Of a stretch of 64,000 bases of DNA, positions 11,315-48,990 are shown in pieces. Under the pieces are notes generated by a model. The model was not told where the DNA came from. It saw only the letters and a program-made list of their open reading frames with translations, and did not search any database. How positions within the stretch are numbered: position 1 is the first letter of the stretch; each line of letters starts with the position of its first letter. Source of the stretch: Chloroflexota bacterium (lineage in GTDB: Bacteria; Chloroflexota; Limnocylindria; Limnocylindrales; CSP1-4). The stretch spans positions 9,026-73,025 of the forward strand of contig DAOTXE010000019.1 in the NCBI GenBank assembly GCA_034435355.1, read 5' to 3'. A program made the translations under genes and the position numbers.

Positions 11315-12862
11315 GTGCGAGCCCTCCTATCGGTCGCGAACCGCGATGGGATCAGCGCGCTCGCCCGTGACCTCGCCGGCCTCGGAGTCGAGATCTACGC
11401 GACCGACGGGACCCGGGAGCACCTCCTCGCCGACGGGGTCGACGCGCTCCCGATCACGGCACTGACGAACGTCCCGCAGCTCGTGGGCGGCCAGGTGAAG
11501 ACGTTCCACCCGGCCGTCTACGCCGGCATCCTCGCCCGGCGCGACCGGCCCGACGAGCTCGCGGAGCTCGCGGAGCTCGGGATCGGGCTGCTCGACATCG
11601 TGGTCGTCACCGTGAAGCCGTTTGCCCCGCAGGTCGGGGAGCGGCGCCTCCCGCTCGAGGAGGCGCTCGAGATGATCGATGTGGGAGGGACGGCGCTCCT
11701 GTCGGCAGCCGCCCGCAACCACGCAGGCGTGGCCGCGGTCAGCAGCCCGGCCGCCTATGCCGAGCTCGTCGCCGATATCCGCGCCCGCGGAAGCGTTTCG
11801 GCCGAGCTGCGGCAGCGGCTGGCTGCGGAAGCGTTCGCCGTCGTCGCCGCGCACCACGCGGAGGTGGCCGCCTACCTCAACCAGGTCACCGGGACGACGT
11901 TCCCGCCCCACGTCTCGATCGTGCTGGAGAAGGTCACCGACCTCCCGTACGGCGAGAACCCGCACCAGCGGGCAGCGTTCTACCGGGAGACGACGCACCG
12001 CGACGGCAAGCTCGCCGATGCGGTCCAGCTCCAGGGCCGCCCACCCACCTTCAACGACCTCCTCGACCTCGACGCTGCCTGGCTGATCGCGCGCGACTTC
12101 TCTGCCCCCACCGCGGTCGTGGTGCGCCACACGGACCCGGTCGGGATCGCCTCGGACGATGGGCTTCCGGAAGCCTACCGGCGAGCGATGGAGACGGACC
12201 CGGCCGCCGGCTACGGCGCGATCGTCGGGGTCAACCGGCCGCTCGACGCGACCACCGCGCGGGAGATCGCATCGGGGACGTTCGAGGCGGTCGTCGCGCC
12301 CGGCTACGATTCCGCGGCGCTCGCAGCGCTTGCCGCGCGGCCCAGCCTGGAGGTGCTCCGCGTCCCGCCGAATCCCCCGGACGGGCTGCGCGACTACGGG
12401 ATCACCGCGCTCGACTTCAAGCGGATCGGCGGGGGCCTTCTCGCGGAGACGCTCGACCACACGGCCCTCGACCGCGGCCAGCTCCGCGTGGTGACCCAGC
12501 GCCGCCCGACGCTGGGAGAGCTGACCGACCTCATGTTCGCCTGGCGCGTGGCGGCCCACGTCCGCTCGAATGCGATCGTCCTCTGCCGGGATCTCCAGAC
12601 GGTGGGGATCGGAGCCGCCCAGGTGAACCGCCAGGTGGCCGTGGAGATCGCCCTCCGGCGGGCCGGCGACCGGGCAAAGATGGCCGTGATGGCTTCGGAC
12701 GCCTACTTCCCGTTCCCCGACGCGATCGCCCATGCCGCGATCGCCGGGGTCACCGCGATCGTCCAGCCGGGCGGCTCCCGGCGCGACGAGATGGCGATCG
12801 AGGTCGCCGACCGCCACCACCTGGCGATGGTCTTCACGGGGCGGCGCCACTTCCGACACTGA
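11315..12862 (+). CDS. purH: bifunctional AICAR formyltransferase / IMP cyclohydrolase
   Basis: MGS-like N-terminus ALLSVANRDGISALARDLAGLGVEIYATDGT...KTFHPAVYAGILARRD and an AICARFT C-terminal domain. GGAGG lies 9 nt before GTG 11315. Confidence 0.9.
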   Translation: MRALLSVANRDGISALARDLAGLGVEIYATDGTREHLLADGVDALPITALTNVPQLVGGQVKTFHPAVYAGILARRDRPDELAELAELGIGLLDIVVVTVKPFAPQVGERRLPLEEALEMIDVGGTALLSAAARNHAGVAAVSSPAAYAELVADIRARGSVSAELRQRLAAEAFAVVAAHHAEVAAYLNQVTGTTFPPHVSIVLEKVTDLPYGENPHQRAAFYRETTHRDGKLADAVQLQGRPPTFNDLLDLDAAWLIARDFSAPTAVVVRHTDPVGIASDDGLPEAYRRAMETDPAAGYGAIVGVNRPLDATTAREIASGTFEAVVAPGYDSAALAALAARPSLEVLRVPPNPPDGLRDYGITALDFKRIGGGLLAETLDHTALDRGQLRVVTQRRPTLGELTDLMFAWRVAAHVRSNAIVLCRDLQTVGIGAAQVNRQVAVEIALRRAGDRAKMAVMASDAYFPFPDAIAHAAIAGVTAIVQPGGSRRDEMAIEVADRHHLAMVFTGRRHFRH

Positions 12863-13284
12863 GGGGCGCCGGCACGGGGGGCGGAGGCCACGCCGACCGG
12901 CACCCGGGGACACGGCCGGGGACACGGCCCGTCCCCGCCGGCTCGACCGGACGATGGGCTTCACGGGCGGCCGGCAACCCTTCTCGATCAGATGCTCGCC
13001 TGGCAAACGTTACGCAGGTCGCTGGAGCGCCCACTCGATCATATGAACGCCCGCGCGGACAGTTGACAGGATCGGGCACCGTCGGCGCGCCCGGCCTGTG
13101 CATGATCCGCAGCCCTCCGCCGATCCCCGCGCCGGCCCACCCTGCATACGGTCCGCGTGGCATGCAATTGATCAGGTTGCCCGGCGGCGGAGCGCGCCAG
13201 GTGCGGCGTTCGGCGCCGGAACGCGCGAGCACCGCCATCTCGAGGTCGACCGACGATCGCGATGAGGTTCCGTGGGCGATCGGC

Positions 13285-13950
13285 TCAATCGCCCGGGGGT
13301 GCCCCCCAGGCGCCTGCTGCGGCATTCCACCGACCGATCGGGCGGGCCGCGCCGGGACCTGCGCGCTGTTCGGCTCGACGCCGCGCGGTCGCAACGGTCT
13401 CGCGCCAGCCGGGAGGTCGCAGGCCGGGGGCGAGGTCGGCCAGCGGGGCCAGCACGAAGAGCCGTTCACGGGCACTCGGGTGGGGGACGGTCAGCCACCA
13501 CTGCGCGGCCGGGCCGGCCGAGCCGTCGCCGAAGCGCAGCATGTCGGCGGCGGCGCGGGCAGTCTCGGCGGCGCGGGCCGGATCCTCGCTCCGAGCCTCC
13601 GCAGGCCGCTCCACCCGGACCCGGTGGCGCCCGAAGACGAGCACGTCCAGGTCGAGCGCCCGCGGCCCCCAGCGCGGCCCATCACGTCGCCCGAACGCGC
13701 GCTCGAGACCCTTGAGCGCGACGAGCAGCGCCAGCGCCCCCGTGACGGGATCGGGGCCGGCCGGGACGTCGAGCGCCACGACGGCGTTGCGGAACTCGGG
13801 TTGGTCGACGACGCCGACCGGCGCGGTCGCGTAGAGCCGTGAGACTCCGGCGAGCCGGACGCCTGGCAGCGCGGAGAGCGCGTGGACCCCGGCCACGAGG
13901 GTGCCGACGGCATCGCCGATGTTCGCGCCCAGCCCGATGTACGCGCGCAC
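13285..13950 (-). CDS. folK: 2-amino-4-hydroxy-6-hydroxymethyldihydropteridine pyrophosphokinase (HPPK)
   Basis: VRAYIGLGANIGD...PRALDLDVLVF...WLTVPHPSARERLFVLAPLADL are HPPK signatures. The upstream part of the long minus ORF is Arg-rich and non-coding in appearance, so the start is placed at GTG 13950. Confidence 0.8.
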   Translation of the reverse strand: MRAYIGLGANIGDAVGTLVAGVHALSALPGVRLAGVSRLYATAPVGVVDQPEFRNAVVALDVPAGPDPVTGALALLVALKGLERAFGRRDGPRWGPRALDLDVLVFGRHRVRVERPAEARSEDPARAAETARAAADMLRFGDGSAGPAAQWWLTVPHPSARERLFVLAPLADLAPGLRPPGWRETVATARRRAEQRAGPGAARPIGRWNAAAGAWGAPPGD

Positions 13951-13989
13951 CCGTCCCAACCGGCCGCCTCCCGGGGTACCGTTTCGGGC

Positions 13990-15236
<1,247 letters not shown>

Positions 15237-15240
<4 letters not shown>

Positions 15241-16427
15241 TCTCGCCGGCGGAGGACGCTATCCGCGCAGAGATCGTCGCGCACGGTCCGATTCCGTTTG
15301 CGCGTTTCATGGCGCTCGCGCTGGGTCATCCCTCCGGTGGCTACTACGCAGGGCCACGGGCGCGACCGACTCGCCGCGGCGACTTCCTCACCGCGCCGGA
15401 GCTCCACCCGATCTTTGGCGCGGCGCTGGCACGGCAGCTGGCGGAGGCATGGAATCGTCTGGGCCGGCCCGACCCGTTCACGCTCGTCGAGTACGGGGCG
15501 GGCGCCGGGACGCTGGCCCTGGCGGTCCTCGCCGGTCTCCGCGACGATCGCTCGCCGCTCGCCGATGCCCTGGTGTATGCACCGATCGAGCTGAACACAC
15601 ACCGCCTGACCGAGCTGCACGAGCGGGCGGCGGCGACCGGCCTGCCCGTCGTCGCGGCGCCCGTGGCGCCGCCCGGAGCCGCGCCGGCGCCGGCTCCGGT
15701 CCAGGGTGCCGTGCTGGCCAACGAGTTCCTCGATGCGCTCCCCGTCCACGCGGTCGAGATCCGGGGCGGCGAGCCCCGTGAAGTCCACGTCGAGGTCGCG
15801 GGCGACGGCGCCCTCGTCGAGATCCTCATGCCTGCGTCCACTCCTGCGATCGCCGTCCGGCTCGACGCGCTCGCCGCGTCCGGCGTCACGTTCGCGGAAG
15901 GACAGCGGGCGGAGCTCTGCCTCGCGCTCGACGGCTGGGTCGCCGAAGTGGCGCTGTCCCTCGCGGCGGGGATCGTGCTCGTGATCGACTACGGCGCGCC
16001 GGCGCCCGAGCTCTACGGCCCGCGACGCTGCGCCGGCTCGCTGATGACGTACCGCGGCCACGTCGCCGACGGCTCGCCCGACGCGCCATACCGCGACGTC
16101 GGCGAGCGTGACATCACGGCCCACGTCGACACCACGACGCTGGAGCGGCTCCTGGCTGCGGCCGGCTTCGACGTCCTCGGAGACACGACCCAGGCCGAGC
16201 TGCTGGCGGGCTGCGGGCTGGACGACCTCCTCGAACGCGAACGCTGTCGATCGAGCGACGCGGCCTCGGCGCTGCTCCTGCGGAGCGCGGTCATGCGGCT
16301 GCTGGACCCGCGCCACCTCGGCGGCTTCCGGGCGGTGCTCGCGGGACGCGGGATGCCGGCCGGGCCGCCGCTTCGCGGCCTTGCCTGGCGGATGCCGGCC
16401 GGACGACCGGCGCCCCCGATGCGCTGA
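15237..16427 (+). CDS. class I SAM-dependent methyltransferase, MidA/NDUFAF7 (DUF185, COG1565) family
   Basis: IPFARFMALALGHPSGGYYA...GDFLTAPELHPIFGAALARQLAEAW...LVEYGAGAGTLALAVL...ANEFLDALPVH matches the MidA family. GTG overlaps the upstream stop (GTGA). Confidence 0.75.
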
Positions 16428-16659
16428 GGCGGCCCGGCCGCCCGGGCGGCCGCACGGGCGGTTCCGCCGCGGCGCCCGGGCCGGCAGGGACAGCCGGCCA
16501 CGCCCCCGGAACGCTCCTGCTAGGATGCTGAGGCGTGCCCGGAGGCTCCGGGCACGACTGGTGTGCCCGTTTCGCCCGAGCCCCGACCGGGTCTTCGTGG
16601 ATCGACCGGCTGCCCCCTCCGGGGCGCCAGCCGCACTGCCCCGGCGACTGAAAGGTGCG

Positions 16660-17016
16660 ATGGAAGGGATCTGGTACGTCGTCGGGTTTGTCGTGGCCGG
16701 CGTCTCGTTCGTGTTCCTGACGATCGGGCTGTCGTGGCTGATCAGCCACCGCACTCGCGGGAGCCGGGGTAAGGGCCTCCCCTACGAGAGCGGGATCGAC
16801 ACTTACGGGGACACCCACGGGCGCTTCGGCGTCTCGTACTACCTGTACGCCCTCCTCTTCGTCGCCTTCGACATCGAGGTGATCTTCATCTTCCTGTGGG
16901 CGCTGGTGATCCGGGACGCGATCCCGGGCATCCTGAGCTCGATGTTCCTGTTCGTCGGGATCCTCCTCCTGGGCCTTGCCTACGCGTGGCGGAAAGGCGT
17001 GCTCACGTGGCGCTGA
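16660..17016 (+). CDS. nuoA: NADH-quinone oxidoreductase subunit A
   Basis: ...[51 protein letters not shown]. Confidence 0.9.
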
Positions 17017-17750
17017 CGGAGCGCGGCAAGCCGAACCGTGACCTGGCCGTTTCGGCCGCACCGGCCCGGGACCTGCCCGCGCCGGCGGCGTCGCCGGACG
17101 ACGCGCTGGTCGAGGCGATCGTCGTGCCGAATGCACTCTGGCGGCCCGAGGACCCGCTCGGATACGGCGGCGGCGCGCTGCGCGACGACCCGCGCCTCGA
17201 GATGCGGCGCTACGACGAGTCCGGCGAGGGCCGCCGCGACGATGCGCGCTGGGCTGCGCTGGACATCGTGCCCACCAAGGCCGACTACGTGCTGGACCTG
17301 ATCCGCATGAACAGCCTCTGGCCGCTGCTGTCGGGCCTGGCCTGTTGCGCGATCGAGATGATGTCGACCGCGACCAGCCGCCACGACATCGATCGCTGGG
17401 GGATGTTCCCGTTCCGCGCTTCCCCGCGCCAGGCGGACGTGCTCATCGTGGCGGGCACGCTCACGACGAAGATGGCCGAGCCGCTGGTCCGGCTGTGGGC
17501 AGAGATGCCCGAGCCGAAGTGGTGCGTCGCGATGGGCGACTGCACCTGCTCGGGCGGGCGCTACAAGCGCAGCTACAGCACGGTCCAGGGGATCGACCGG
17601 GTCCTCCCGGTGGACGTCTACGTCCCCGGCTGCCCGCCCCGCCCGGAGGGCCTGATCTACGGGATGATGAAGCTCCAGCAGCTCGTCAAGGAGCGCCGCG
17701 GCCACTGGGCAGAGCGCGCGATCGGCCCCACCGTCCCGGACCAGGTCTGA
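17007..17750 (+). CDS. nuoB: NADH-quinone oxidoreductase subunit B (N2 cluster)
   Basis: [17 protein letters not shown]...[10 protein letters not shown]...VPGCPPRPE, so the N2 ligand motifs are intact. The start GTG 17007 has a GGAAAGG RBS and overlaps the nuoA stop. An alternative ATG at 17202 gives a 182-aa product. Confidence 0.85.
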
Positions 17751-17753
17751 CCG

Positions 17754-18305
17754 ATGGATCGTGCCTTCCGGGTCCGCCTCGAGCGAACGTTCGGGGACCT
17801 CCTGACCGGGCCCGTCCGCCAGCGCCACGACGAGACCGAGATGCGCGTCCGCCCCGGCGACGTCCCGGCCGTGATGCGGACCCTCCACGACGACCCAACG
17901 CTCCGCTTCGAATACCTGGGCGACCTCGCCGGCGTGGACACCGGCATGGACTTCCAGGTCGTCTACCACCTCTGGAGCGTCGTGACCCCGGACTGGCTCA
18001 GGGTGATCGCCGATGGGATCCCGCGCGACCAGCCGCGCATCCCCTCGATCACGTTCCTGTGGAAGGGCGCCGAGTGGATGGAGCGCGAGGCGTACGACAT
18101 GTTCGGCCTCGTTTTCGAGGGCAATCGCGACCTGCGCCGGATCTACCTCCCGGACGACTTCGTGAGCTTCCCGCTCCGCAAGGACTTCCACCTCCCGGAC
18201 GACGCGTCGCGCTCGCCCGGCGGCGGGGTGCGCCCGATGGAGGGCGCCGCCACGCCGGCCGACGCCGCGGAGCGCACCGTGCGCCGCACGGCCACGGCCA
18301 GGTAG
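17754..18305 (+). CDS. nuoC: NADH-quinone oxidoreductase subunit C (30 kDa)
   Basis: FEYLGDLAGVD...VVYHLWS...ITFLWKGAEWMEREAYDMFGLVFEGN. Confidence 0.9.
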   Translation: MDRAFRVRLERTFGDLLTGPVRQRHDETEMRVRPGDVPAVMRTLHDDPTLRFEYLGDLAGVDTGMDFQVVYHLWSVVTPDWLRVIADGIPRDQPRIPSITFLWKGAEWMEREAYDMFGLVFEGNRDLRRIYLPDDFVSFPLRKDFHLPDDASRSPGGGVRPMEGAATPADAAERTVRRTATAR

Positions 18306-18319
18306 CGCAGGGGACGCCG

Positions 18320-19534
18320 ATGACAACCCCGACTCGGCCCAGCCTCGACGATCCGGCCCTGGCCATCCCGCTCGACCATCCCGGGATCTTCGAGCCGATC
18401 CCCGTGGCTCGCACCGAGCGCCAGCAGGAGTTCTACGACCTCCGCGACGGCGAGATGCTCCTGAACATGGGACCGCAGCACCCGTCCACGCACGGCGTCC
18501 TGCGCGTGGTCCTCAAGATCTCGGGCGAGCAGGTGGTGGACCTGGACCCGGTCCTTGGCTACCTCCACCGCGGGGTCGAGAAGATCGCCGAGAACTCCGA
18601 CTTCCACCACATCATCAGCCAGCTCGACCCGCTCGAGTACATCAGCTCCCTCTTCTGCGAGTGGAGCCCGGTGATGTCCTTCGAGAAGCTCCTCGACGTC
18701 CAGGTCCCGCGACGGGCGGAGTACATCCGGGTCCTGACGGCCGAGCTGAACCGGATCGCCAGCCACATGCTCTTCCTGGGCTGGTACGCCCTGGACCTGG
18801 GCGGGATCACGCCGATCCTGTGGAGCTTCGCCGAGCGCGACGAGATCATGGAGATGCTCGCCGCGGTCACCGGCGCGAAGCTCCTCTTCAACTACTTCCG
18901 GATCGGTGGCGTCAACGGCGACCTGAACCACGAGTTCATGAGCCGCCTCGGCGACTGGATGAGCCGGGCGGGAACCCAGCTAGAGGCCGGGATGGGCCTC
19001 CTCAACGAGAACGAGATCTTCGTCCGGCGCGCGCGCGGGCTCGGCGTCCTCGACCGCGAGACCGCCCTCCGCATGTGCACCACGGGGCCGAACCTGCGGG
19101 CGTCCGGGGTCCCCTTCGACATCCGGCGCGCGCACCCGTACAGCGTCTACCCGGAGCTGGAGTTCGACATCCCGACCCGCAACGAGGGCGACTCCCTCGC
19201 GCGCTACCTGCTCCGCATGGACGAGGTCCGCCAGAGCCTCCGGATCATCGACCAGTGCCTGCACCAGATGCCCGACGGTCCCGTCATGGCGCGCCAGCCG
19301 CGCCTCCTGCGACCGCGCCCGGGCCGGGCCTACAGCGCGGTCGAGGGACCCCGCGGGCAGTACGCCTGCTACGCCATCAGCGACGGGACCGACCAGCCGT
19401 TCCGCCTGCGGATCCACGACCCGAGCTTCCTGCACCTCCAGCTGGTGGGGCTCCTCATGCCGGGCAACCTGATCGCCGACACGATGGCGATCATGGCGTC
19501 GCTGGACCCGGTCATGGGCGGCGTGGACAAGTGA
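18320..19534 (+). CDS. nuoD: NADH-quinone oxidoreductase subunit D (49 kDa)
   Basis: NMGPQHPSTHGVLRVVLKISGEQVVDLDPVLGYLHRGVEKIAE...RIHDPSFLHLQ. Confidence 0.95.
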   Translation: MTTPTRPSLDDPALAIPLDHPGIFEPIPVARTERQQEFYDLRDGEMLLNMGPQHPSTHGVLRVVLKISGEQVVDLDPVLGYLHRGVEKIAENSDFHHIISQLDPLEYISSLFCEWSPVMSFEKLLDVQVPRRAEYIRVLTAELNRIASHMLFLGWYALDLGGITPILWSFAERDEIMEMLAAVTGAKLLFNYFRIGGVNGDLNHEFMSRLGDWMSRAGTQLEAGMGLLNENEIFVRRARGLGVLDRETALRMCTTGPNLRASGVPFDIRRAHPYSVYPELEFDIPTRNEGDSLARYLLRMDEVRQSLRIIDQCLHQMPDGPVMARQPRLLRPRPGRAYSAVEGPRGQYACYAISDGTDQPFRLRIHDPSFLHLQLVGLLMPGNLIADTMAIMASLDPVMGGVDK

Positions 19535-19544
19535 GGGCCGCGGC

Positions 19545-20882
19545 GTGGTGAGCGCCTACTGGAGCCGCCTCTCGCTGGGCTCGCGGGCGTTCCTCGTGGT
19601 CGTCCCGGCCCTGCTCGTGGTGGGCGGGCTCCTCGCCGTCGCCGTCGCCCTGTTCCTGGGGCCGGTGCTGGACTTCATCAACGCGAACCTGCCCCTGGGC
19701 CGCTTCGTGCTGGCGGCCACGGCGCTCATCGTGGTCACGATCCCGATCGCGTTCCTGATCATCTTCATGGAGCTGAAGGTGATCGCCGCGATGAACCTGC
19801 GGGTCGGGCCCGACCGCGTCGGGCCGTACGGCACGTTCATGTCCGTGGTCCACGGCCTCAAGGTCCTCTCCAAGGAGGACTTCACGCCGCTGGGCGTCGA
19901 CGTCCCGATCTTCACCCTGGCGCCGATCGTCGTGTTCGCCTCGATCCCGCTGACGCTCCTGGTGATCCCGTTTGCGCCCGGGCTGTACGGCCAGGACTTC
20001 AACCTTGCCCTGCTCTACTTCTTCGCGATCGGCGGGATGAGCGTGGTGGGCCTGATGATGGCCGGCTGGGCGAGCTTCAACAAGTACAGCCTGCTCGGCG
20101 CGCTGCGGGCCGCCGCCCAGGCGATCAGCTACGAGCTCCCCCTGACGCTCTCCGTGGTCGGGATCATCATCCTGGCCGGGACGATGAGCCTGAACTCCAT
20201 CGTCGGCCAGCAGGCGGGATCGCTCTTCGACTGGAACATCTGGAAGCAGCCGCTCGGCTTCATCATCTTCTTCATCGCTGCCACGGCCGAGGCGAACCGG
20301 ACGCCGCTGGACATGACCGAGGCGGACCAGGAGCTCGTCGCCGGCTTCGCCACCGAGTATTCCGGCATGCGCTTCGGCTTCTTCTTCTTCGCCGAGTACG
20401 TCAACGTGTTCGTCGTCTCGGCGCTCACCACGGTCCTCTTCTTCGGCGGCTGGAACGCCCCGTTCAACTGGCCGTGGCCCGTCGCGATCAGCCTGGACCC
20501 GGGTGGCCTCGGGCTCGGCCTCATCTTCCTGATCGTCCTCGCCCCCGTCCTGGGCACGATCGTCCTGGGCCTGCCGTTCTGGCTCCTGTCGAGCCGGGTG
20601 AGCACGCTGCGGGCGCTGGTGGCCGGCTTCGTCCTGTTCAACCTGCTGATCATCGGGGCATTTCTGGGCTGGGCCTTCATCAGTGCCGCCTGGGTCTCGG
20701 GCCTGGTCTGGATGATGCTCAAGACCTTCGTCTTCGTCTTCATCTTCGTCCAGATGCGCGGGACGCTTCCGCGCGTGCGCGTCGACCAGCTGATGAGCTT
20801 CGCCTGGAAGTGGCTCCTGCCGGCAGCGCTCCTGAACATCTTCGTGACGGCGACCGCCGTCGTGATCGTGGCGAACCGGTGA
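19545..20882 (+). CDS. nuoH: NADH-quinone oxidoreductase subunit H (ND1)
   Basis: MELKVIAAMNLRVGPDRVGPYG...YELPLTLSVVG...EYSGMRFGFFFFAEY. GTG start with a GAGGG RBS. Confidence 0.95.
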   Translation: MVSAYWSRLSLGSRAFLVVVPALLVVGGLLAVAVALFLGPVLDFINANLPLGRFVLAATALIVVTIPIAFLIIFMELKVIAAMNLRVGPDRVGPYGTFMSVVHGLKVLSKEDFTPLGVDVPIFTLAPIVVFASIPLTLLVIPFAPGLYGQDFNLALLYFFAIGGMSVVGLMMAGWASFNKYSLLGALRAAAQAISYELPLTLSVVGIIILAGTMSLNSIVGQQAGSLFDWNIWKQPLGFIIFFIAATAEANRTPLDMTEADQELVAGFATEYSGMRFGFFFFAEYVNVFVVSALTTVLFFGGWNAPFNWPWPVAISLDPGGLGLGLIFLIVLAPVLGTIVLGLPFWLLSSRVSTLRALVAGFVLFNLLIIGAFLGWAFISAAWVSGLVWMMLKTFVFVFIFVQMRGTLPRVRVDQLMSFAWKWLLPAALLNIFVTATAVVIVANR

Positions 20883-20892
20883 GGGTGCGGCG

Positions 20893-21726
20893 ATGAGCTT
20901 CGTGCCCGGGATGGGGATCCTCAGGGGGATGGCGCTGACCCTGCGGCGCTTCTTCGCACCCAAGGTGACGATCCGCTACCCGGAGGTTCCGGCGGACATC
21001 GCGGTGAAGTACCGCGGCCGTCTGCAGCTGCTCTACGACGAGCACGGCACGCTCAAGTGCGAGACCTGCTTCCAGTGCGCCCAGGCGTGCCCCATCGAGT
21101 GCATCGACATGGGAGGAAGCGATACGAAGGGCCGCTACGCCGTCCACTGGGGCGCCTCGGAGACCTACGGCGAGCGACGGGAGGAGGCAGCCCTCCGGCG
21201 CTCCGGCCGCGAGGTGCCGGACCCGACCTACACCCACTTCGAGGCGATCGACGTCGCCGCGGTGGACCGGATCCTCGAGAACCACGAGTACGACCCGCAC
21301 CGGATGCTCTCGATCCTGGAGGCGATCCAGGCCGAGTTCGGCCACCTTCCCGTGGCGGCGCTCAAGCAGGTGAGCTTCACCACCGGCTCGTGGTACGCGA
21401 TGATCTACGGCACCGCCACCTACTACCGGCACTTCCGGTTCGAGAAGCCCGTCGAGCAGGTCGCGGTCTGTCGCTGCACGGCCTGCCTCATGCATGGCGG
21501 CGGGCGACTCGCGGACGGGATCGCGGACGGCCTCCGGACGGGGCTCGGGCGGGTCACGCCGGACGGCCGGATCCAGCTGGCCTGGCTCCCGACCCACCCC
21601 GCCGGCGCCGCCGCGCCCCTCGTCGCGCTCGACGGCGAGCCACAGCCGGAGGTGACGCCGGCCAACGCCACCGCGTGGGCCCAGGCGCTCGCCGGGGAGC
21701 ACCCCGCGACCCGGACGATCCACTGA
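20893..21726 (+). CDS. fused NuoI-like (N-terminal, single CxxCxxCxxxCP motif) / NuoE-like (C-terminal, thioredoxin-like, partial Cys set) protein - degenerate Fe-S subunits of the nuo operon
   Basis: N-terminus ILRGMALTLRRFFAPKVTIRYPEVP...YRGRLQL...CETCFQCAQACPIECI is NuoI/Nqo9-like, but the second cluster motif is replaced by ASETYGERREEAAL. C-terminus LSILEAIQAEFGHLPVAALKQVSFTTGSWYAMIYGTATYYRHFRFEK...VAVCRCTACLMHGGGRLADGI is NuoE/Nqo2-like and lacks the distal Cys pair. Confidence 0.8.
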   Translation: MSFVPGMGILRGMALTLRRFFAPKVTIRYPEVPADIAVKYRGRLQLLYDEHGTLKCETCFQCAQACPIECIDMGGSDTKGRYAVHWGASETYGERREEAALRRSGREVPDPTYTHFEAIDVAAVDRILENHEYDPHRMLSILEAIQAEFGHLPVAALKQVSFTTGSWYAMIYGTATYYRHFRFEKPVEQVAVCRCTACLMHGGGRLADGIADGLRTGLGRVTPDGRIQLAWLPTHPAGAAAPLVALDGEPQPEVTPANATAWAQALAGEHPATRTIH

Positions 21727-21730
21727 GCCG

Positions 21731-23080
21731 ATGACCACGATCCTCCCGACCCCCGCCGCCTGGCCGCACCCGCTCCTCGGGGATGCCCCGTCGGCGGACC
21801 CGGCCGACCTGGATGCCGCGGTTCGCGCCGGGGCCTTCGCGGGGCTCGCTCGCGCGCTCAACGACCTGGGCCCCACCCTGAGCACCGTCGCGATCGCCGA
21901 ATCCGGCCTCCGGGGACGGGGCGGCGCCGGTTACCCGGCCGCCGACAAGTGGCGCGCCGTCGCCGCGGCGGCGGAGGGCATCCGCTACGCGGTGGCGAAC
22001 GGCTACGAGGCCGACCCGGCCGGGGGAACCAACCATCACCTGATGACCGCCCGTCCGTACGCGATCGTGGAGGGCCTCGCGATCGCCGCGCTCGCGGTCG
22101 GCGCGGAGGAGGCGATCCTGGCGGTCCGCGCGGAGTACGCCGACGCGGTGGCCGCGCTCGAGCTCGCGGTTGCCGAGGCGGGCGAGGCCGGGTACCTCGG
22201 CGAGGACGTGCTCGGCTCGGGGCGCACGCTCCGGATGACGGTCCGGGCCGTGCAGGGCGCCTACATGCTGGGCGAGGAGACGGTCCTTCTCAAGGCGCTC
22301 GAGGGCCGGCGCGGGCAGCCCGAACAGCGGCCCCCGTACCCGTCCGAGCGCGGGCTGTGGGGCCGGCCGACGCTCGTCCACAACGTCGCGACGCTCGCGG
22401 CGATTCCCTGGATCATGGTCCACGGCGCGGACGCGTTCCGCTCGACCGGCGATCCGGGCGCGCCGGGCACGGTCCTCGTCTCGGTCAGCGGGGCCGTGGC
22501 GACCCCCGGCATCCTGGAGGTGCCGACGGGGACGCCGCTCGCGGACATCGTCGCGCTCGCAGGCGGCGTCGCGGGAGGGCGCCCGCTCAAGGCGATCCTG
22601 GTCGGCGGGCCGTCGGGCGGGCTCCTCCCGGCCGACCTCGCGGCCACGCCCTACACGTTCGGGGCGCTCCGGGCGGCCGGCGCGCATGTCGGGTCGGGAT
22701 CGGTCGTCGTGGCGGACGACCGGAGCTGCGTCCTCGACCTCGCCCGCCTGCTGACCCGCTATTGCGCGGACGAGGCGTGCGGCAAGACGATCCCCTGCCG
22801 GGTCGGGCTGCGCCGCCTCTCCGAGATCGGCGAGCGCATGGTCGCTGGCTTCGCCCGGCCGACCGACCCGCAGCTCCTGGCCGACCTCGCAGCGGACATC
22901 GCGGGCAGCGCGTTGTGCGACCACGAGCGGCTGGCCACGGGCCCGCTCGCGACCGCGATGCGATACTTCGGGGCCGAGGTCGACGCCCACATCCTGCGGG
23001 GCGTCTGCCCGGCCGGCGTCTGTGCCCCCATCGGGACCGCCGTCGCCGCCGGTCCCGCAACTACTGCGCACGGAGGATAG
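21731..23080 (+). CDS. nuoF: NuoF-like (51 kDa NADH/FMN-binding) subunit with altered N3 cluster motif
   Basis: GLRGRGGAGYPAADKW and GAYMLGEETVLLKALEGRRGQPEQRPPYPSERGLWGRPTLVHNVATL are present. The N3 motif reads EACGKTIPCRVG, with C-x2-T-x2-C in place of C-x2-C-x2-C. Confidence 0.85.
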   Translation: MTTILPTPAAWPHPLLGDAPSADPADLDAAVRAGAFAGLARALNDLGPTLSTVAIAESGLRGRGGAGYPAADKWRAVAAAAEGIRYAVANGYEADPAGGTNHHLMTARPYAIVEGLAIAALAVGAEEAILAVRAEYADAVAALELAVAEAGEAGYLGEDVLGSGRTLRMTVRAVQGAYMLGEETVLLKALEGRRGQPEQRPPYPSERGLWGRPTLVHNVATLAAIPWIMVHGADAFRSTGDPGAPGTVLVSVSGAVATPGILEVPTGTPLADIVALAGGVAGGRPLKAILVGGPSGGLLPADLAATPYTFGALRAAGAHVGSGSVVVADDRSCVLDLARLLTRYCADEACGKTIPCRVGLRRLSEIGERMVAGFARPTDPQLLADLAADIAGSALCDHERLATGPLATAMRYFGAEVDAHILRGVCPAGVCAPIGTAVAAGPATTAHGG

Positions 23081-23091
23081 GCACGACCGCG

Positions 23092-25731
23092 ATGGCCGAC
23101 CTCGTCTCCCGGCCCCCCGACCTCCTCCCCGCCGCGCGGCCGCAGCCGATGGTCGATTCGCTCGCCGAGCGGCTGCTCCGGACCCAGTCGCCGCAGCGCC
23201 CGCAGTCCACCCCGCTGATCCGCCTGGAGGTGGACGGGCGGGTCGTCGAGGGTCGCGAGGGGCAGACGATCCTCGAGGTCTGCCGGGACAACGGGATCGA
23301 GATCCCAACCCTCTGCTACGAGCCCAAGCTGCCCGGCTTCGGGGCCTGTCGGATGTGTGTGGTCGAGGTGGCGGGCGAGGAGCACCCGCCGATCTCGTGC
23401 TCGCGGCTGGCCGAGGCGGGGATGGTGGTCCAGACCCAGACCGAGGCGGTCCGTCGCCTGCGGCGCACGAACCTGGAGCTGATCTTCTCCGACCACAACG
23501 CCTACTGCCTGCCGCCGTGCCAGAACAAGTGCCCGAGCCACATAGACATTCCGGGCTTTCTCAAGGCGAATGCGGAGGGCGAGTTCCGCGAGTCGGCCCG
23601 GATCTTCAAGCGGACCATCCCGTTCCCCTCGATCCTCGGCCGGGTCTGCCCGGCGCCGTGCGAGGAGCACTGCCGCCGCGACGAGGTGGACGAGGCGATC
23701 GCGATCCGGGACAGCCACCGCTACGCCGGCGACCAGGTGCTCCTCGCGATGCGCGAGGAGGGCGTCGATCCGCCCCTCCCGTTCGAGCTCCAGCCGAAGT
23801 CGGGCAAGCGGGTGGCGGTCATCGGCTCGGGCCCGGCCGGCGCGTCGGCCGCCTACTACCTCCTGATCGCCGGCCACGAGGTGACGATCTACGAGCGCGA
23901 CGAGGCGCCCGGGGGGATGCTCCGCTACGGCATCCCGGAGTACCGGCTGCCGAAGGAGCGGGTCCTCGACCCCGAGTACGAGAGCATCACGCGGCTCGGC
24001 GGGCGCTTCATCTGCAACCAGGCGCTCGGGCGCGACTTCAGCCTGGACGACCTCCAGAACCAGGGCTACGACGCGGTCGTCGTCGCGATCGGCTGCTACG
24101 ACACGAACAAGCTCGGGATCCCGGGGGAGGACGCGGACGGCGTCATCGACGGCCTCGAGTACCTCAAGGTCGCCACGCTCGGCCTGCTCTACCCGGGTCA
24201 CGCGGGGAAGCGGGTGGTCGTCGTCGGGGGCGGCTTCACGTCGATGGACTGCTCGCGCACGTCGGTGCGCCAGGGTGCGTCGGAGGTGACGCTCGTCTAC
24301 CGCCGCGACATGAAGGACATGCCGGCCTCGGGCGAGGTCCATGAGGCGATCGAGGAAGGCGTCACGACGATCTTCCAGGCCGGCCCGACCCGCGTCATCG
24401 CCGACGATGCGGGCAGGGTGACCGGCGTGGAGTTCATCCGGATGCAGCTCGGTGCGCCCGACGCCTCCGGCCGGCGCCGCCCGGAGCCCGCCCCCGGCAC
24501 CGAGTTCGTGATCGCGTGCGACCGGGTCCTGCTCGCCATCGGCCAGGGGCCGGACCTGAGCTGGATCGGCGCCGGCTCCGACGGCGTCGAGGCCACCCGG
24601 AACCGGCGCCTGCGGGCCGACGCGGTCACCTTCGTGACGCCGCGGCCGGGCGTCTTCGGGACGGGCGACGTCCGCAACGGCGCGCAGACGGTGGTCCAGG
24701 CAGTCGCCGACGGACGCCGCGCCTCGTACGCCGTCGACGCGTTTCTGAAGGGCCTCGACCTCGGGGAGATCAGGACCCGCCAGACGCTGGCCGAGCCGCA
24801 GCCGGAGTTCCTCAGCATCGTGCCGTTCACCTCCGAGGTGAAGGCGCCCCGCCATCGGCTGCGGAGCATGCCGGCCGAGGAGCGCCGCACAAGCTACGTG
24901 GAGTACGAGATCCCGTACACCCCGAGCGAGGCCGTCGCGGAATCGACGCGCTGCCTCCAGTGCACCTGCGAGGCGATCGGATTCTGCGACCTGCGTCGGC
25001 TGGGGATCGAGTACGGGACCACCCTGCGGACACTGGAGCCGCAGAACAACCAGGGGGCCGGCTTCCGGAGCGTGACCGAGAACCGCTTCACGGGAGCCAA
25101 CCACGACTACGTCCGCGACGACAGCCACGCCTTCATCCTCCGCGAGCCGTCGCGCTGCATCGACTGCGGCCGCTGCGCGAACGTGTGCGCCGAGGTCGTC
25201 GGGGCGGCCTGCTACGACTTCATGCGGATCGGCTTCGACACGCTCGTCACCACGCCGCTCGACATGAGCCTCAACGACACGCCGTGCGTCTCGTGCGGTC
25301 GCTGCGCCGAGACGTGCCCCACCGGCGCGCTCATGCCCAAGCCCCGGATCCTCGAGAAGTACGAGGTGGACGAGAGCCGCTGCATCCTGTGCGGGATCTG
25401 CGTCGACGCCTGCCCCTACGATGCGCTCCGCTGCGGACCCGACTTCGAGCTGGCCCACGTCAGCCGCGAGGAGCCCATGATCGACCTGATCGCGATCGCC
25501 GCGGTGGACCGCGAGACCGAGATGACCTACGTCCACAGGGAGCGCGACTGGCTGGAGCGGGCGATCGCCTCGGGGCGCGACGTCGGGCCGCGTCAACTGC
25601 CCGTGCTTCCGGCCTCGCTCGCCGAGCGGGGCGGCGGGCACGGCGGGGGTCGCGCGAGCGACCCGGACAACGGCCACAATGGCACCGGCGCGGCCGGCGG
25701 CGCCTTCCCGGAGCACGGACGCAACCGGTAG
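23092..25731 (+). CDS. chimeric Fe-S flavoprotein: NuoG N-terminal-like [2Fe-2S] domain + GltD-type NAD(P)H/FAD oxidoreductase + C-terminal 2x[4Fe-4S] ferredoxin domain (occupies nuoG position)
   Basis: [19 protein letters not shown]...[16 protein letters not shown] matches NuoG N1b. [25 protein letters not shown]...[57 protein letters not shown] and [25 protein letters not shown] match GltD. The C-terminus carries [23 protein letters not shown] and [12 protein letters not shown]. Confidence 0.85.
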
Positions 25732-25799
25732 ACCCAGCGCGAGGGCGGGCGGAAAGCCGCCCGGTCGACGCGCAGCGCAGGCTGGAGGGAGAGGAACAG

Positions 25800-26333
25800 G
25801 TGGCCATACCGGATACCATCCCGGTCCTCGGGATCAGCTGGAGCGACGTGCTCTTCCTGGTCCTTGCGGCCGTGATGCTCGGGTCCGCCTTCCTCGTGGT
25901 GACCCTTCGCGACATCATCCGCTGCGGGCTGGCGATGATCGTGGCCTTCGGGGCGCTCGCCGGGATCTACGTGCTGCTCGGCGCGCCGCTGGTGGCCGCC
26001 GCGCAGGTGCTCGTCTACATCGGCGCGATCGCCGTCCTGATCCTCTTCGCGGTCATGCTGACCCAGGCGAAGAACGCGCCCGTCCGGCTCGTCTTCCAGG
26101 CGCAGGCGTTCCCCGCCGCGATCGCCGCCATCGTGCTGGCAGTGCTGATCGCGCTCACGGTAAGCGCGACGGACTGGGGCGCGGCGGCGAAGCGGCTCGC
26201 GACGGCGACGGACGCGCTGGCCCGCCTGCTGTTCACGTCGTACGTGCTGCCGTTCGAGGTCGTGAGCGTGCTCCTGCTGATGGCCGTGATCGGGGGCATC
26301 TTCCTGGCGAAGCGCGAGGGCCGGGACGCGTGA
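25800..26333 (+). CDS. nuoJ: NADH-quinone oxidoreductase subunit J
   Basis: A hydrophobic ND6-like protein. GTG start with a GGAGGGAGAGG RBS. Confidence 0.9.
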
Positions 26334-26641
26334 GCCAGAGCCTCGACGCCTACCTCAGCGTGTCCGGGATCCTGTTCTCGATCGGCATGTTCGGGTTCCT
26401 GGCCCGGCGCAACGCGATCAGCATGCTGATGTCCATCGAGCTGATGCTGAACGCGGTGAACCTGACGATCGTCGCCTTCGGGGCCTTCATTCCCGCCCTC
26501 AACGGAACCGCCTCCATCATCGCCCTCGTCGTGATGGCGGTCGCCGCGGCCGAGGCCACGGTCGGCCTCGCGATCGTCATGGCCATCTACCGGAACCGCC
26601 GCACACCGCTGGTCGACGAGTACGACAGCATGCGCCAGTAG
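26330..26641 (+). CDS. nuoK: NADH-quinone oxidoreductase subunit K
   Basis: [24 protein letters not shown]...[20 protein letters not shown] overlap with nuoJ. Confidence 0.9.
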
Positions 26642-26663
26642 CCGCGGGAATCGGGCCGCCTCC

Positions 26664-28676
<2,013 letters not shown>

Positions 28677-28687
28677 GCAGGCAGACC

Positions 28688-30238
28688 ATGGACGCCACGT
28701 CCTTCCCGATCCTCAGCGTGATCATCTTCCTGCCCCTCGTGGGGGCGGTGGTGGTCGGGCTCATTCCGCGGCGCAACCTGGCCGCGATCCGCGGGACCGC
28801 GCTGCTCTTCGCCCTCGCGACGTGGGTCGTCAGCCTGTGGCTGGTCCTCGGCTTCCTGCCGGGACGCCAGCTGGTGGCATCCGCGGCGGGCTCGTTCGAG
28901 TTCGTGCAGACGATCGACTGGATCCCGGTCTTCGGGATCCAGTACAAGGTCGGCGCCGACGGCCTCTCGGTGGCGCTCGTAGTCCTGACCACGACACTGT
29001 CGTGGATCTCGATCCTGGCCAGCTTCTCGCCGATCAAGGAGCGGGTGAAGGAGTACATGATCTCCTTCCTCGTCCTCGAGGTCGGGATGCTGGGCGTGTT
29101 CCTGGCCCTGGACCTGTTCCTGTTCTACATCTTCTGGGAGGTGGTCCTCGTCCCGATGTACCTGATCATCGGGATCTGGGGCGGCGCGAACCGGATCTAC
29201 GCGACGATCAAGTTCGTCCTCTACACGCTCGTCGGGTCGCTCCTGATGCTGGTGGCGATCCTCGCCACGGCGTTCACCTACCAGCACGCAACCGGGTCGT
29301 GGGTCGGTGCGTTCGACCTGGAGAAGCTCGCCGGAGCCGGCTTCGACGGCACGTTCCAGGTCTTCGCCTTCGCCGCGTTCGCGCTGGCCTTCGCGATCAA
29401 GGTCCCGATGTTCCCCTTCCACACCTGGCTGCCGGACGCGCACGTCGAGGCACCGACGGCCGGCTCGGTGATCCTGGCAGGCGTGCTGCTCAAGCTCGGC
29501 GCGTACGGCTTCATCCGGTTCGCCATCCCGCTCTTCCCGCACGGCGCCCACGTGTTCGCGCCGCTCATCATCGCCCTGTCGCTCATCGCGATCATCTACG
29601 GCGCGATCGTGGCCATGGTCCAGCCCGACCTCAAGAAGCTCGTCGCCTACAGCTCCGTGAGCCACATGGGATTCGTGACCCTGGGCATCTTCATCTTCCA
29701 GGCCCAGGGCCTCCAGGGCGCGATCCTCCAGATGGTCAACCACGGCATCATCACGGGCGCCCTCTTCCTGCTCGTCGGCGTCATCTACGAGCGAACCCAC
29801 GACCGGACGATCGCGAAGATGGGCGGCCTGGGCGCGGTGACGCCGGTCTACTCGGCCGCCCTGGGGTTCTTCGTGTTCGCGTCGGTCGGCCTGCCCGGCC
29901 TGGCCGGGTTCGTCGGCGAGTTCCTCGTCTTCCAGGGCGCGTTCGCATTCAACCCGTGGGTCGGCGTGTCCGCCGCGTTCGTCATGATCTTCGCGGCCGG
30001 GTACCTGCTCTGGATGCTCCAGCGCGTGTGCTTCGGCCAGGTTTCGGAGTTCCTGTCGAACCTCGGTCACCACCTGACCGACATGCGCCCCACGGAGATC
30101 CTGACGCTCGCCCCGCTGGGCGCCCTGACGGTGGTCCTGGGCCTCTATCCCGCCCTCGTCCTGGACCTCATCGCGGGCCCGGTCAGGGCGGTCCTGGCCG
30201 CGGTCGACCCATCGGTCGCGATGGCTGTCGGCCGCTGA
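28688..30238 (+). CDS. nuoM: NADH-quinone oxidoreductase subunit M
   Basis: FYIFWEVVLVPMYLIIGIWGG...FPFHTWLPDAHVEAPTAGSVILAGVLLKLG. Confidence 0.9.
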   Translation: MDATSFPILSVIIFLPLVGAVVVGLIPRRNLAAIRGTALLFALATWVVSLWLVLGFLPGRQLVASAAGSFEFVQTIDWIPVFGIQYKVGADGLSVALVVLTTTLSWISILASFSPIKERVKEYMISFLVLEVGMLGVFLALDLFLFYIFWEVVLVPMYLIIGIWGGANRIYATIKFVLYTLVGSLLMLVAILATAFTYQHATGSWVGAFDLEKLAGAGFDGTFQVFAFAAFALAFAIKVPMFPFHTWLPDAHVEAPTAGSVILAGVLLKLGAYGFIRFAIPLFPHGAHVFAPLIIALSLIAIIYGAIVAMVQPDLKKLVAYSSVSHMGFVTLGIFIFQAQGLQGAILQMVNHGIITGALFLLVGVIYERTHDRTIAKMGGLGAVTPVYSAALGFFVFASVGLPGLAGFVGEFLVFQGAFAFNPWVGVSAAFVMIFAAGYLLWMLQRVCFGQVSEFLSNLGHHLTDMRPTEILTLAPLGALTVVLGLYPALVLDLIAGPVRAVLAAVDPSVAMAVGR

Positions 30239-30254
30239 CGGGAGCTGCCTGACG

Positions 30255-31736
30255 ATGACCTGGTCCGATTTCGCCACCGTCGCCCCCTTCGCGGCCGCCG
30301 TGGCCGTGGCGGCGCTCGTCGTCGTGGCCGACATCGTGCGGCCCGGAAACCGGCACCTGGCGCTGGGTGTTGCCCTGGCGGGCCTCGTCGGCGTCGGTGC
30401 GCTCACCCTGTGGACCGGCCAGTCGCCGGGGACCGCCTTCGGCGGCATGTACAAGGTCGACAACCTGACGACGTTCCTCGACACGATCTTCGTCGCGATC
30501 GCGGCGATCACCTGCCTCTTCGCGCCCGACTACCTCGAGCCGCGCGGGCTTCCGGTCGCGGAGTTCGCCGCCATCCTCGTGTTCGCGCTGAGCGGCGCGA
30601 TGCTGGTGTCCGCGTCCGCGGACCTCATCGTCCTGTTCGTCGGTCTCGAGCTCATGGTGATCCCGGGCTACCTGCTCGCCGGGTATCACAAGCGCGACGC
30701 GCTCTCCACCGAGGGCGCGATCAAGTACTTCCTGCTCGGCTCGTTCTCGAGCGCGATCTTCCTCTTCGGGCTCGCCTACATCTGGGGCCTGACCGGCTCC
30801 ACCCGGATCGCCGACGTGGCGGCCCGGATCGGCGCGGTCATGGCCGGCCAGGCACCGCTCTCCCCCGGTCTGGCGATGGGCCTGGCCTTCCTCACGACCG
30901 GGGTCGCGTTCAAGATGGCCGCGGTCCCGTTCCACTACTGGACGCCCGACGCGTACCAGGGCTCGCCGACGCCGGTGACCGGCTACCTGTCGGTGGGCCC
31001 GAAGGTGGGGGCGTTCGCGGTGGTGCTGCGGGTCTTCGCCGAGGCCCTCCTCCCGCTTCGCCAGGAGTGGGTGATCGTCTTCTTCGTCCTCGCGGCGCTG
31101 ACCATGACGCTTGGCAACCTCGTGGCGCTCACGCAGGACAACGTCAAGCGGATGCTCGCCTACTCGTCGATCGCCCACACCGGGTACATGCTGGTGGGCC
31201 TCGCGGCGTACGCGGCAGGGGTGCTGCAGGGCCTCGAGGGCCTCCTCTTCTACGGCGCCGCCTACGCGTTCATGAACCTGGGGGCGTTCGCCGTGATCGC
31301 CGCCCTCCAGAAGCGCCCCGGGGTCAGCAGCCGGCTGGAGACGTTCGCGGGGCTCGGGCGGCGTGAGCCGGCGCTCGGTCTCCTGATGGTCCTCTTCCTG
31401 CTCTCCCTGACCGGGATCCCACCGACGGCCGGCTTCTTCGCCAAGGCGTACGTGATCCTCGCCGCCGTGCAGGCCGGGGGATGGCTCACGGCCCTCGCCG
31501 TCATCGCCGTCCTCAACGCGGCCGCGGCCGCGTTCTACTACCTGCGGGTCATCGTCTACATGTACATGCGCGATCCGGCGGGCGAGCCGGCCCCCGTGGG
31601 CCACGGCGCGCTGCTCCGCCTGGGGCTCGCCATCACGGCAGTCATGACGGTGGTCCTGGGCCTCTTCCCGGGGCTCATCCTGACGAGCGTCTCGTCGGCG
31701 GCGCAGGCAATCGGGGTCGCTGTCGCCATCCATTAG
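30255..31736 (+). CDS. nuoN: NADH-quinone oxidoreductase subunit N
   Basis: VGLELMVIPGYLLAGY...AVPFHYWTPDAYQGSPTPVTGYLS. Confidence 0.9.
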   Translation: MTWSDFATVAPFAAAVAVAALVVVADIVRPGNRHLALGVALAGLVGVGALTLWTGQSPGTAFGGMYKVDNLTTFLDTIFVAIAAITCLFAPDYLEPRGLPVAEFAAILVFALSGAMLVSASADLIVLFVGLELMVIPGYLLAGYHKRDALSTEGAIKYFLLGSFSSAIFLFGLAYIWGLTGSTRIADVAARIGAVMAGQAPLSPGLAMGLAFLTTGVAFKMAAVPFHYWTPDAYQGSPTPVTGYLSVGPKVGAFAVVLRVFAEALLPLRQEWVIVFFVLAALTMTLGNLVALTQDNVKRMLAYSSIAHTGYMLVGLAAYAAGVLQGLEGLLFYGAAYAFMNLGAFAVIAALQKRPGVSSRLETFAGLGRREPALGLLMVLFLLSLTGIPPTAGFFAKAYVILAAVQAGGWLTALAVIAVLNAAAAAFYYLRVIVYMYMRDPAGEPAPVGHGALLRLGLAITAVMTVVLGLFPGLILTSVSSAAQAIGVAVAIH

Positions 31737-48909: not shown

Positions 48910-48990
48910 CCGGGCCTGCTCGCCCGCCCGCGCCCGCTCGCCCGGTGCGGGGCCAGCCAAGGGGAACGGCCTCCGTGATCGAGCGCTGAG

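Follow-up and report, generated by a model that had tools for sequence, protein, structure and literature searches.

A MidA/NDUFAF7-family methyltransferase gene next to complex I Q-module genes in Chloroflexota, with recurrent adjacency in Nitrospirota and Cyanobacteria

Dimethylation of a single arginine beside iron-sulfur cluster N2 is needed for the normal assembly of human complex I. Mitochondria and Paracoccus carry this modification whereas E. coli and Thermus do not. The 64,000-nucleotide stretch analysed here (the window; positions 9,026 to 73,025 of contig DAOTXE010000019.1, from a Chloroflexota bacterium of Limnocylindria type) holds a gene of the MidA/NDUFAF7 methyltransferase family, midA, directly upstream of a nuo operon encoding complex I, and it raises the question of whether the methyltransferase acts on the complex encoded beside it. 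In mitochondria NDUFAF7 is the enzyme that dimethylates the NDUFS2 arginine (PMC3829151). At this residue, symmetric dimethylarginine is a feature of the bovine, human, Pichia and Paracoccus enzymes and is missing from the E. coli enzyme (PMC3750175), and MidA homologues of alphaproteobacteria have already been proposed to carry out the reaction, according to the account of Shahul Hameed 2018 given in PMC9006661. The function of MidA in prokaryotes has so far been inferred in silico only (PMC12455994).

The product of 15237-16427 (forward strand) can be placed securely in the MidA/NDUFAF7 family, as a class I S-adenosylmethionine (SAM)-dependent methyltransferase of 396 amino acids (PF02636, COG1565). 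Its gene starts with GTG at 15237-15239 and stops with TGA at 16425-16427, exactly the coordinates at which a preliminary description of this DNA had placed a MidA/DUF185 gene, and the frame fits the codon-position GC content (0.87-0.95 at third and 0.45-0.58 at second positions). An identical 396-amino-acid protein is on record from NCBI, and relatives are labelled 'SAM-dependent MidA family methyltransferase' by JGI. The protein matches Pfam PF02636 (Methyltransf_28, formerly DUF185) over profile positions 1-247 of 249 with E=6.1e-46 and 157.3 bits, the curated cut-off being 23.3 bits; a search of the NCBIfam profiles gave no match for midA. SAM-binding motif I, EYGAGAG, occupies residues 85-91 (15489-15509, forward strand), and its E85, G87, G89 and G91 are invariant or almost so among diverse homologues. 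The family motifs GDFLTAPE, NEFLDALPVH, IDYG and DITAHVD are likewise present, and the patterns GDFxTAPE, ExGxGxG, NExxDAxPxH, IDYG and D(I/L)TxHVD vary little or not at all in sets of 31 and 26 diverse homologues. This assignment is further supported by an AlphaFold2 model (predicted local distance difference test score, pLDDT, 84; predicted template-modelling score, pTM, 0.87), which Foldseek aligns over the full chain with the Burkholderia thailandensis COG1565 protein 4F3N (template-modelling (TM) score 0.76-0.80), the Rhodopseudomonas palustris DUF185 protein 1ZKD (0.71-0.80) and the MidA of Dictyostelium discoideum (0.71-0.72), whereas other methyltransferases reach only ~0.35 at best. 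It is because Pfam, motifs and full-chain fold agree, and other methyltransferases fall so far below, that we consider family membership secure.

The window protein thus shares with human NDUFAF7 and Dictyostelium MidA (5ZTZ/5ZU0/5ZZW) the PF02636 family, a two-domain fold over the whole chain, and the SAM and family motifs. It differs from the mitochondrial enzymes in having no mitochondrial targeting, in being encoded beside the operon of its presumed substrate and in being coupled to an ORF (open reading frame), here called orfU, that is specific to its clade. By sequence, its PDB matches are 4F3N at E=4e-37, 1ZKD at E=1e-21 and Dictyostelium MidA 5ZTZ at E=5e-12, so that it scores nearer to the Burkholderia protein than to either of the other two. 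The closest solved structures, 4F3N/4G67 (~30% identity for 4F3N) and 1ZKD, are structural-genomics targets without an assigned substrate and are therefore uninformative on function. PF02636-type homologues number 10,252 representatives of 50%-identity clusters at E<=1e-3, and in a rough unrooted neighbour-joining tree none of the three reference proteins is placed among the sampled non-proteobacterial MidA sequences.

The arginine on which such an enzyme would act is present in the window. NuoD (404 amino acids; 18320-19534, forward strand; PF00346, E=1.3e-84) carries GPQHPSTHGVLR from residue 51 and GYLHRGVEK, with HRG at residues 83-85. The preliminary description had drawn attention to both of these arginine-containing motifs and both are indeed retained, but only GYLHRGVEK holds the target arginine: the dimethylated residue of bovine NDUFS2 is mature Arg-85, which lies in HRGxE and not in GVLR (PMC3750175, PMC8042128), and GVLR is not the methylated site. 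Through the HRGxE motif (PMC8042128, PMC3750175), NuoD Arg-84 (codon 18569-18571, forward strand) is by sequence the equivalent of bovine NDUFS2 Arg-85 and of Paracoccus Nqo4 Arg-65, the latter of which is symmetrically dimethylated (PMC3750175). Thermus has threonine at this position, in the sequence HTG (PMC3750175, PMC8042128). The complex I of Paracoccus denitrificans, likewise of the bacterial 14-subunit type with the HRGxE arginine, provides the precedent for the modification in bacteria (PMC3750175). Paracoccus is an alphaproteobacterium, from the lineage in which mitochondria are believed to have originated, whereas the window belongs to Chloroflexota, a case that Shahul Hameed et al. 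2018, with their 'proteobacterial origin' framing, do not cover. By analogy with these systems, Arg-84 would be methylated here too.

We consider it slightly better than an even bet that MidA is a protein arginine methyltransferase that dimethylates NuoD Arg-84 during maturation of the Q-module. In the scheme that we propose, MidA would use SAM to dimethylate symmetrically the Arg-84 of HRGxE, next to iron-sulfur cluster N2, on newly made NuoD, before or while NuoD joins NuoB. The effect would be a more stable complex I Q-module, by analogy with NDUFAF7 and NDUFS2 in mitochondria, and the enzyme would be supplied from a two-gene orfU-midA unit, coupled by the overlap GTGA, directly upstream of a nuo operon with its own apparent promoter.

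The genomic neighbourhood of midA is strongly conserved among close relatives. The window NuoD groups with proteins of Candidatus Limnocylindrales (Chloroflexota), and all close relatives of the window MidA in the genome collection come from Chloroflexota metagenome-assembled genomes (single-sequence query; one Terriglobia locus was also returned). Throughout the close Chloroflexota loci tblastn finds the same order, purH - folK on the minus strand - orfU - midA - nuoABCDH. In the wider Chloroflexota clade, counted from a scan of metagenome contigs and with midA 45-84% identical, nuoA follows midA at no more than 1.5 kb in 27 of the 29 informative loci, that is, those with enough downstream sequence. 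We also observe one basal relative with a different arrangement (L046, 6702-17603, GC 0.70), in which midA is upstream of purH, the minus-strand folK directly abuts nuoA and orfU is missing. This arrangement suggests that, within the clade, the orfU-midA pair either entered the site between folK and nuoA or left it.

Adjacency of midA to complex I genes also recurs far outside this clade. The scan, for which a diverse set of MidA homologues was aligned to serve as the query, yielded 80 loci, which were then searched with the Nuo proteins of the window; distant layouts were confirmed by Pfam and taxa were assigned by cluster names. Of the 34 loci beyond the Chloroflexota clade with 1 kb or more of sequence on each side of midA, 5 have complex I genes no further than 500 bp from it. 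Three additional layouts account for the distant adjacencies, one in Nitrospirota and two in Cyanobacteria. In Nitrospirota (L045, 5444-9386; L078, 5612-9633) midA precedes nuoA-nuoB-nuoCD across a gap of ~70-120 bp (about 70 in L078, whose NuoCD is a fused protein of 612 amino acids). In the cyanobacterial loci L042 (Chroococcus), L060 and L094, midA is on the same strand as ndhH and directly downstream of it, with rsmH upstream of ndhH and divergent from it, and the arrangement rsmH(-)-ndhH-midA likewise occurs in Synechocystis sp. PCC 7509, Gloeocapsa sp., Tolypothrix campylonemoides and Brasilonema octagenarum; ndhH-midA adjacency is absent from four other named cyanobacterial genomes examined, including Nostoc sp. 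C057 and Cylindrospermum. A second cyanobacterial layout, in a hot-spring locus of Synechococcus/Thermostichus type (L049, 8095-11134), has ndhC-ndhK-ndhJ followed by midA ~250 bp on. We further note that in the Nostocales-type loci L101, L103, L104, L105 and L107 a gene for a dehydrogenase of ~290 amino acids (NAD_binding_2/F420_oxidored/NAD_binding_11) regularly lies 3' of midA, whether or not ndhH is upstream.

The complex I genes that adjoin midA always encode subunits of the Q-module (NuoA/B/C/D or NdhH/K/J), in which the methylated arginine touches cluster N2, and every NuoD or NdhH adjoining a midA in the loci examined has HRGxEK. When the flanking ORFs of 64 distant loci were clustered without prior assumptions, NuoC/NuoD was the only neighbour family common to different MidA clades, and the larger clusters reflected synteny within single lineages, one example being the macro-domain-like gene of the Acidobacteriota clade. 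If ~25 lineages are assumed, each with an assumed chance of 0.5-1%, a rough binomial for 3 or more independent adjacencies puts p at about 3e-4 to 2e-3. These observations suggest that the link between MidA and complex I known from mitochondria probably extends widely across bacteria. The juxtaposition in the window had been read in the preliminary description as pointing to a conserved bacterial link between the methyltransferase and complex I, with co-occurrence in related genomes named as a check, and at the genomic level the recurrence of Q-module adjacency in three phyla supports this reading.

As to the macro-domain-like ORF itself, it has ~170-210 amino acids (sequence GDIT...DAIVNPAN) and immediately precedes midA, in the same orientation, in 10 loci (L018, L054, L055, L067, L068, L076, L081, L088, L093 and L096) of one MidA clade, to which the Terriglobia locus L018 belongs. 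Its position beside midA is probably lineage synteny.

In the window, midA and the nuo operon are separated by 232 bp, from the midA stop to the nuoA ATG at 16660, the distance given in the preliminary description. Alignment of the 160 nucleotides upstream of nuoA from 18 Chloroflexota loci reveals a conserved stretch at 16516-16659. At its start, on the forward strand, is CCTGCTAGGATG (16516-16527), an extended -10-like motif (TGnTAnnAT) ~130 nucleotides ahead of the nuoA ATG that occurs once in the window and is a candidate nuo promoter; all 18 aligned loci share CCTGCTA[GC][GC]ATG, with variable flanks. A GC-rich hairpin read from the sequence, GTGCCCGG-AGGCT-CCGGGCAC (16535-16555, forward strand), opens the conserved nuoA leader of ~130 nucleotides, its stem preserved by compensatory changes on both arms, and downstream of it come the rest of the leader and a Shine-Dalgarno sequence. 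Rfam gave no match at E up to 1 in the region 12800-17100, and a generic sigma-70 and terminator scan of 13200-17000 called 0 promoters (CCTGCTAGGATG not among its calls) and one terminator-like site, inside nuoA. The conserved -10-like motif and leader suggest that the nuo operon has its own promoter in this gap and that orfU-midA is a separate transcription unit directly upstream, from which there may be read-through into nuo.

The gene to which midA is coupled, orfU (13990-15240, forward strand), encodes a conserved hypothetical protein of 416 amino acids from the ATG at 13990, or 452 if translation starts at the GTG at 13882. Its codon-position GC is coding-like. Its stop TGA (15238-15240) overlaps the midA GTG by 4 nucleotides (GTGA), and since at least 14 close loci share this overlap we regard orfU-midA as a conserved bicistronic unit. 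The preliminary description had reported both the coupling and the uncharacterised nature of the upstream ORF; indeed, orfU matches no Pfam or NCBIfam profile at E up to 0.01, nucleotidyltransferase families included. Homologues of ~384 amino acids are found only beside midA within the Chloroflexota clade. The AlphaFold2 model of OrfU (pLDDT 87) shows in the N-terminal ~210 residues a weak likeness to GT-A/MobA-like nucleotidyltransferases, with FbiD 6bwg at E=9e-4, TM 0.53-0.60 and ~15% identity, and other weak structural matches are to CofC-like and DUF2064 proteins (E about 1e-3, ~15% identity). The homologues share a conserved LGSGAxP stretch, in which the DxP-type metal-binding aspartate motif, which we take to be typical of nucleotidyltransferases, is not seen. 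Most homologues lack the variable C-terminal tail of OrfU or have another in its place. In this tail a 9-bp tandem repeat without mismatches, GGCGCAGAC x5.3 (15153-15200, forward strand; Tandem Repeats Finder, 100% matches), encodes (AQT)n and ends 37 nucleotides ahead of the midA start; close relatives have a degenerate repeat or none. Divergent from orfU lies folK (13285-13845, minus strand), whose translation is HPPK-like and whose synteny was followed by tblastn. The likeness of OrfU to FbiD and CofC also raised an F420-type (Fpo-like) enzyme, which we reject in view of nuoE and nuoF, encoding the NADH module, in the operon.

Several observations weigh against NuoD as the substrate of the window MidA. 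The enzyme is only distantly related to any MidA that has been studied, with 18% identity to the Dictyostelium protein in the Foldseek alignment and a closer relationship to the uncharacterised Burkholderia COG1565 protein, and orthology with the mitochondrial enzyme to the point of a shared substrate is therefore an assumption. Nor does the presence of the arginine predict its methylation, because E. coli NuoCD keeps it in its HRG motif, as Arg-249, in unmodified form (PMC3750175). The clade is known solely from metagenome-assembled genomes, about half of the sampled cyanobacterial loci have no ndh-midA adjacency, and no complex I gene is near midA in 28 of the 34 distant loci flanked by 1 kb or more on each side. 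The promoter-like motif in the gap suggests that midA is not simply co-transcribed with nuo, and the MidA of Wolbachia gave DNA methylation signals in E. coli, a result that its authors call preliminary (PMC12455994). In an alternative that we hold to be a good deal less than even yet still serious, MidA is a genuine enzyme of its family that acts on something else, for instance another protein arginine or, in line with the Wolbachia signals, DNA, and its position beside nuo is inherited synteny without functional meaning. The close loci all belong to one clade, with NuoD 83-96% identical, and their gene order could be a matter of simple descent; nuo seems to have a promoter of its own, most of the distant midA homologues are not near nuo, and the conserved neighbour in Acidobacteriota is a different gene. 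Weighing against this alternative, genes of the Q-module have come to adjoin midA in two more phyla, in no fewer than three layouts that differ from this one, they are the only neighbour family common to MidA clades, and the sole substrate established by experiment for the family is the NuoD homologue.

The bicistronic unit admits another explanation, which we rate as improbable, namely a small-molecule pathway made up of two enzymes, OrfU as a nucleotidyltransferase-like protein and MidA as the methyltransferase, perhaps tied to the nearby folate/pterin gene folK or to a cofactor, with no protein being modified. The conserved translational coupling, the fold-level resemblance of the N-terminal half of OrfU to FbiD/CofC/MobA-like nucleotidyltransferases and the conserved divergent folK would all suit such a pathway. 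That resemblance is weak, with no Pfam match to accompany it, and orfU is confined to its clade, while midA pairs with nuo or ndh without orfU in L027, in Nitrospirota and in cyanobacteria. Moreover, the synteny of folK with nuo is independent of midA, since in the basal relative L046 folK abuts nuoA and midA lies elsewhere. That midA might be non-functional, either a pseudogene or one of the many long spurious ORFs that a window of 72% GC contains, is a reading with practically no chance of being correct, being effectively refuted by the full-length Pfam match, the fitting codon-position GC, the thousands of homologues, the invariant catalytic motifs and the confidently predicted fold.

In three bacterial phyla the gene of the methyltransferase adjoins genes of the module that would be its target, independent genomic evidence of an old and broadly kept enzyme-substrate pair. 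A bacterial link between MidA and complex I is not new in principle, as the modification in Paracoccus and the alphaproteobacterial proposal precede it; what is new, going by the literature searched, is the evidence from gene neighbourhoods in Chloroflexota, Nitrospirota and Cyanobacteria. In a limited search of the literature we found no report of dimethylarginine in NdhH and no paper tying NDUFAF7/PF02636 to cyanobacteria, Chloroflexi, Nitrospira or this gene neighbourhood. The recurrent adjacency questions a purely proteobacterial origin, and the likely reach of the modification is extended beyond Proteobacteria and to photosynthetic NDH-1. We offer only tentatively, as a proposal that could well prove wrong, that dimethylation of the HRGxE arginine by MidA is an ancient and widespread step of complex I maturation beyond Proteobacteria and mitochondria, cyanobacterial NdhH included, with OrfU as a lineage-specific helper in Q-module maturation. 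Cyanobacteria with ndhH followed by midA, and Nitrospira, would be tractable organisms in which to test it, as proteomics and cryo-electron microscopy data exist in which an arginine heavier by 28 Da could be sought. For the window gene itself the gain is incremental, a corroboration for specialists in complex I and not a surprise.

The nuo operon that follows midA (16660-31736, forward strand, assigned by Pfam) has the order A-B-C-D-H-E-F-(G/I-like fusion)-J-K-L-M-N, a cluster that is complete but rearranged, with nuoH right after nuoD and with NuoG and NuoI represented only by the fusion. Besides nuoD it comprises, all on the forward strand, nuoA (16660-17016, PF00507), nuoB (~17007-17750, PF01058), nuoC (17754-18305, PF00329), nuoH (19545-20882, PF00146), nuoE (20893-21726, 277 amino acids), nuoF (21731-23080), the NuoG/NuoI-like fusion (23092-25731, ~880 amino acids), nuoJ (ending at 26333), nuoK (ending at 26641), nuoL (26664-28676), nuoM (~28679-30238) and nuoN (30255-31736).

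The fusion combines a NuoG-like N-terminal 2Fe-2S domain (Fer2_4), Fer4_20, a GltD-like FAD/NAD(P) pyridine-nucleotide oxidoreductase domain (Pyr_redox_2, E=3e-32) and a C-terminal NuoI-like 2x[4Fe-4S] domain; it has no molybdopterin-like NuoG domain, and there is no space for a separate nuoI. It is kept at full length in related loci, at 85-95% identity and at 79% in L027, and it could be an unusual electron-input module of the complex I of this clade. NuoE has an N-terminal extension of ~120 amino acids ahead of its thioredoxin-like 2Fe-2S domain. Elsewhere in the window, the minus strand at 43717-50292 carries an ORF of 2,191 amino acids with a coding-like third-position GC of 0.89.

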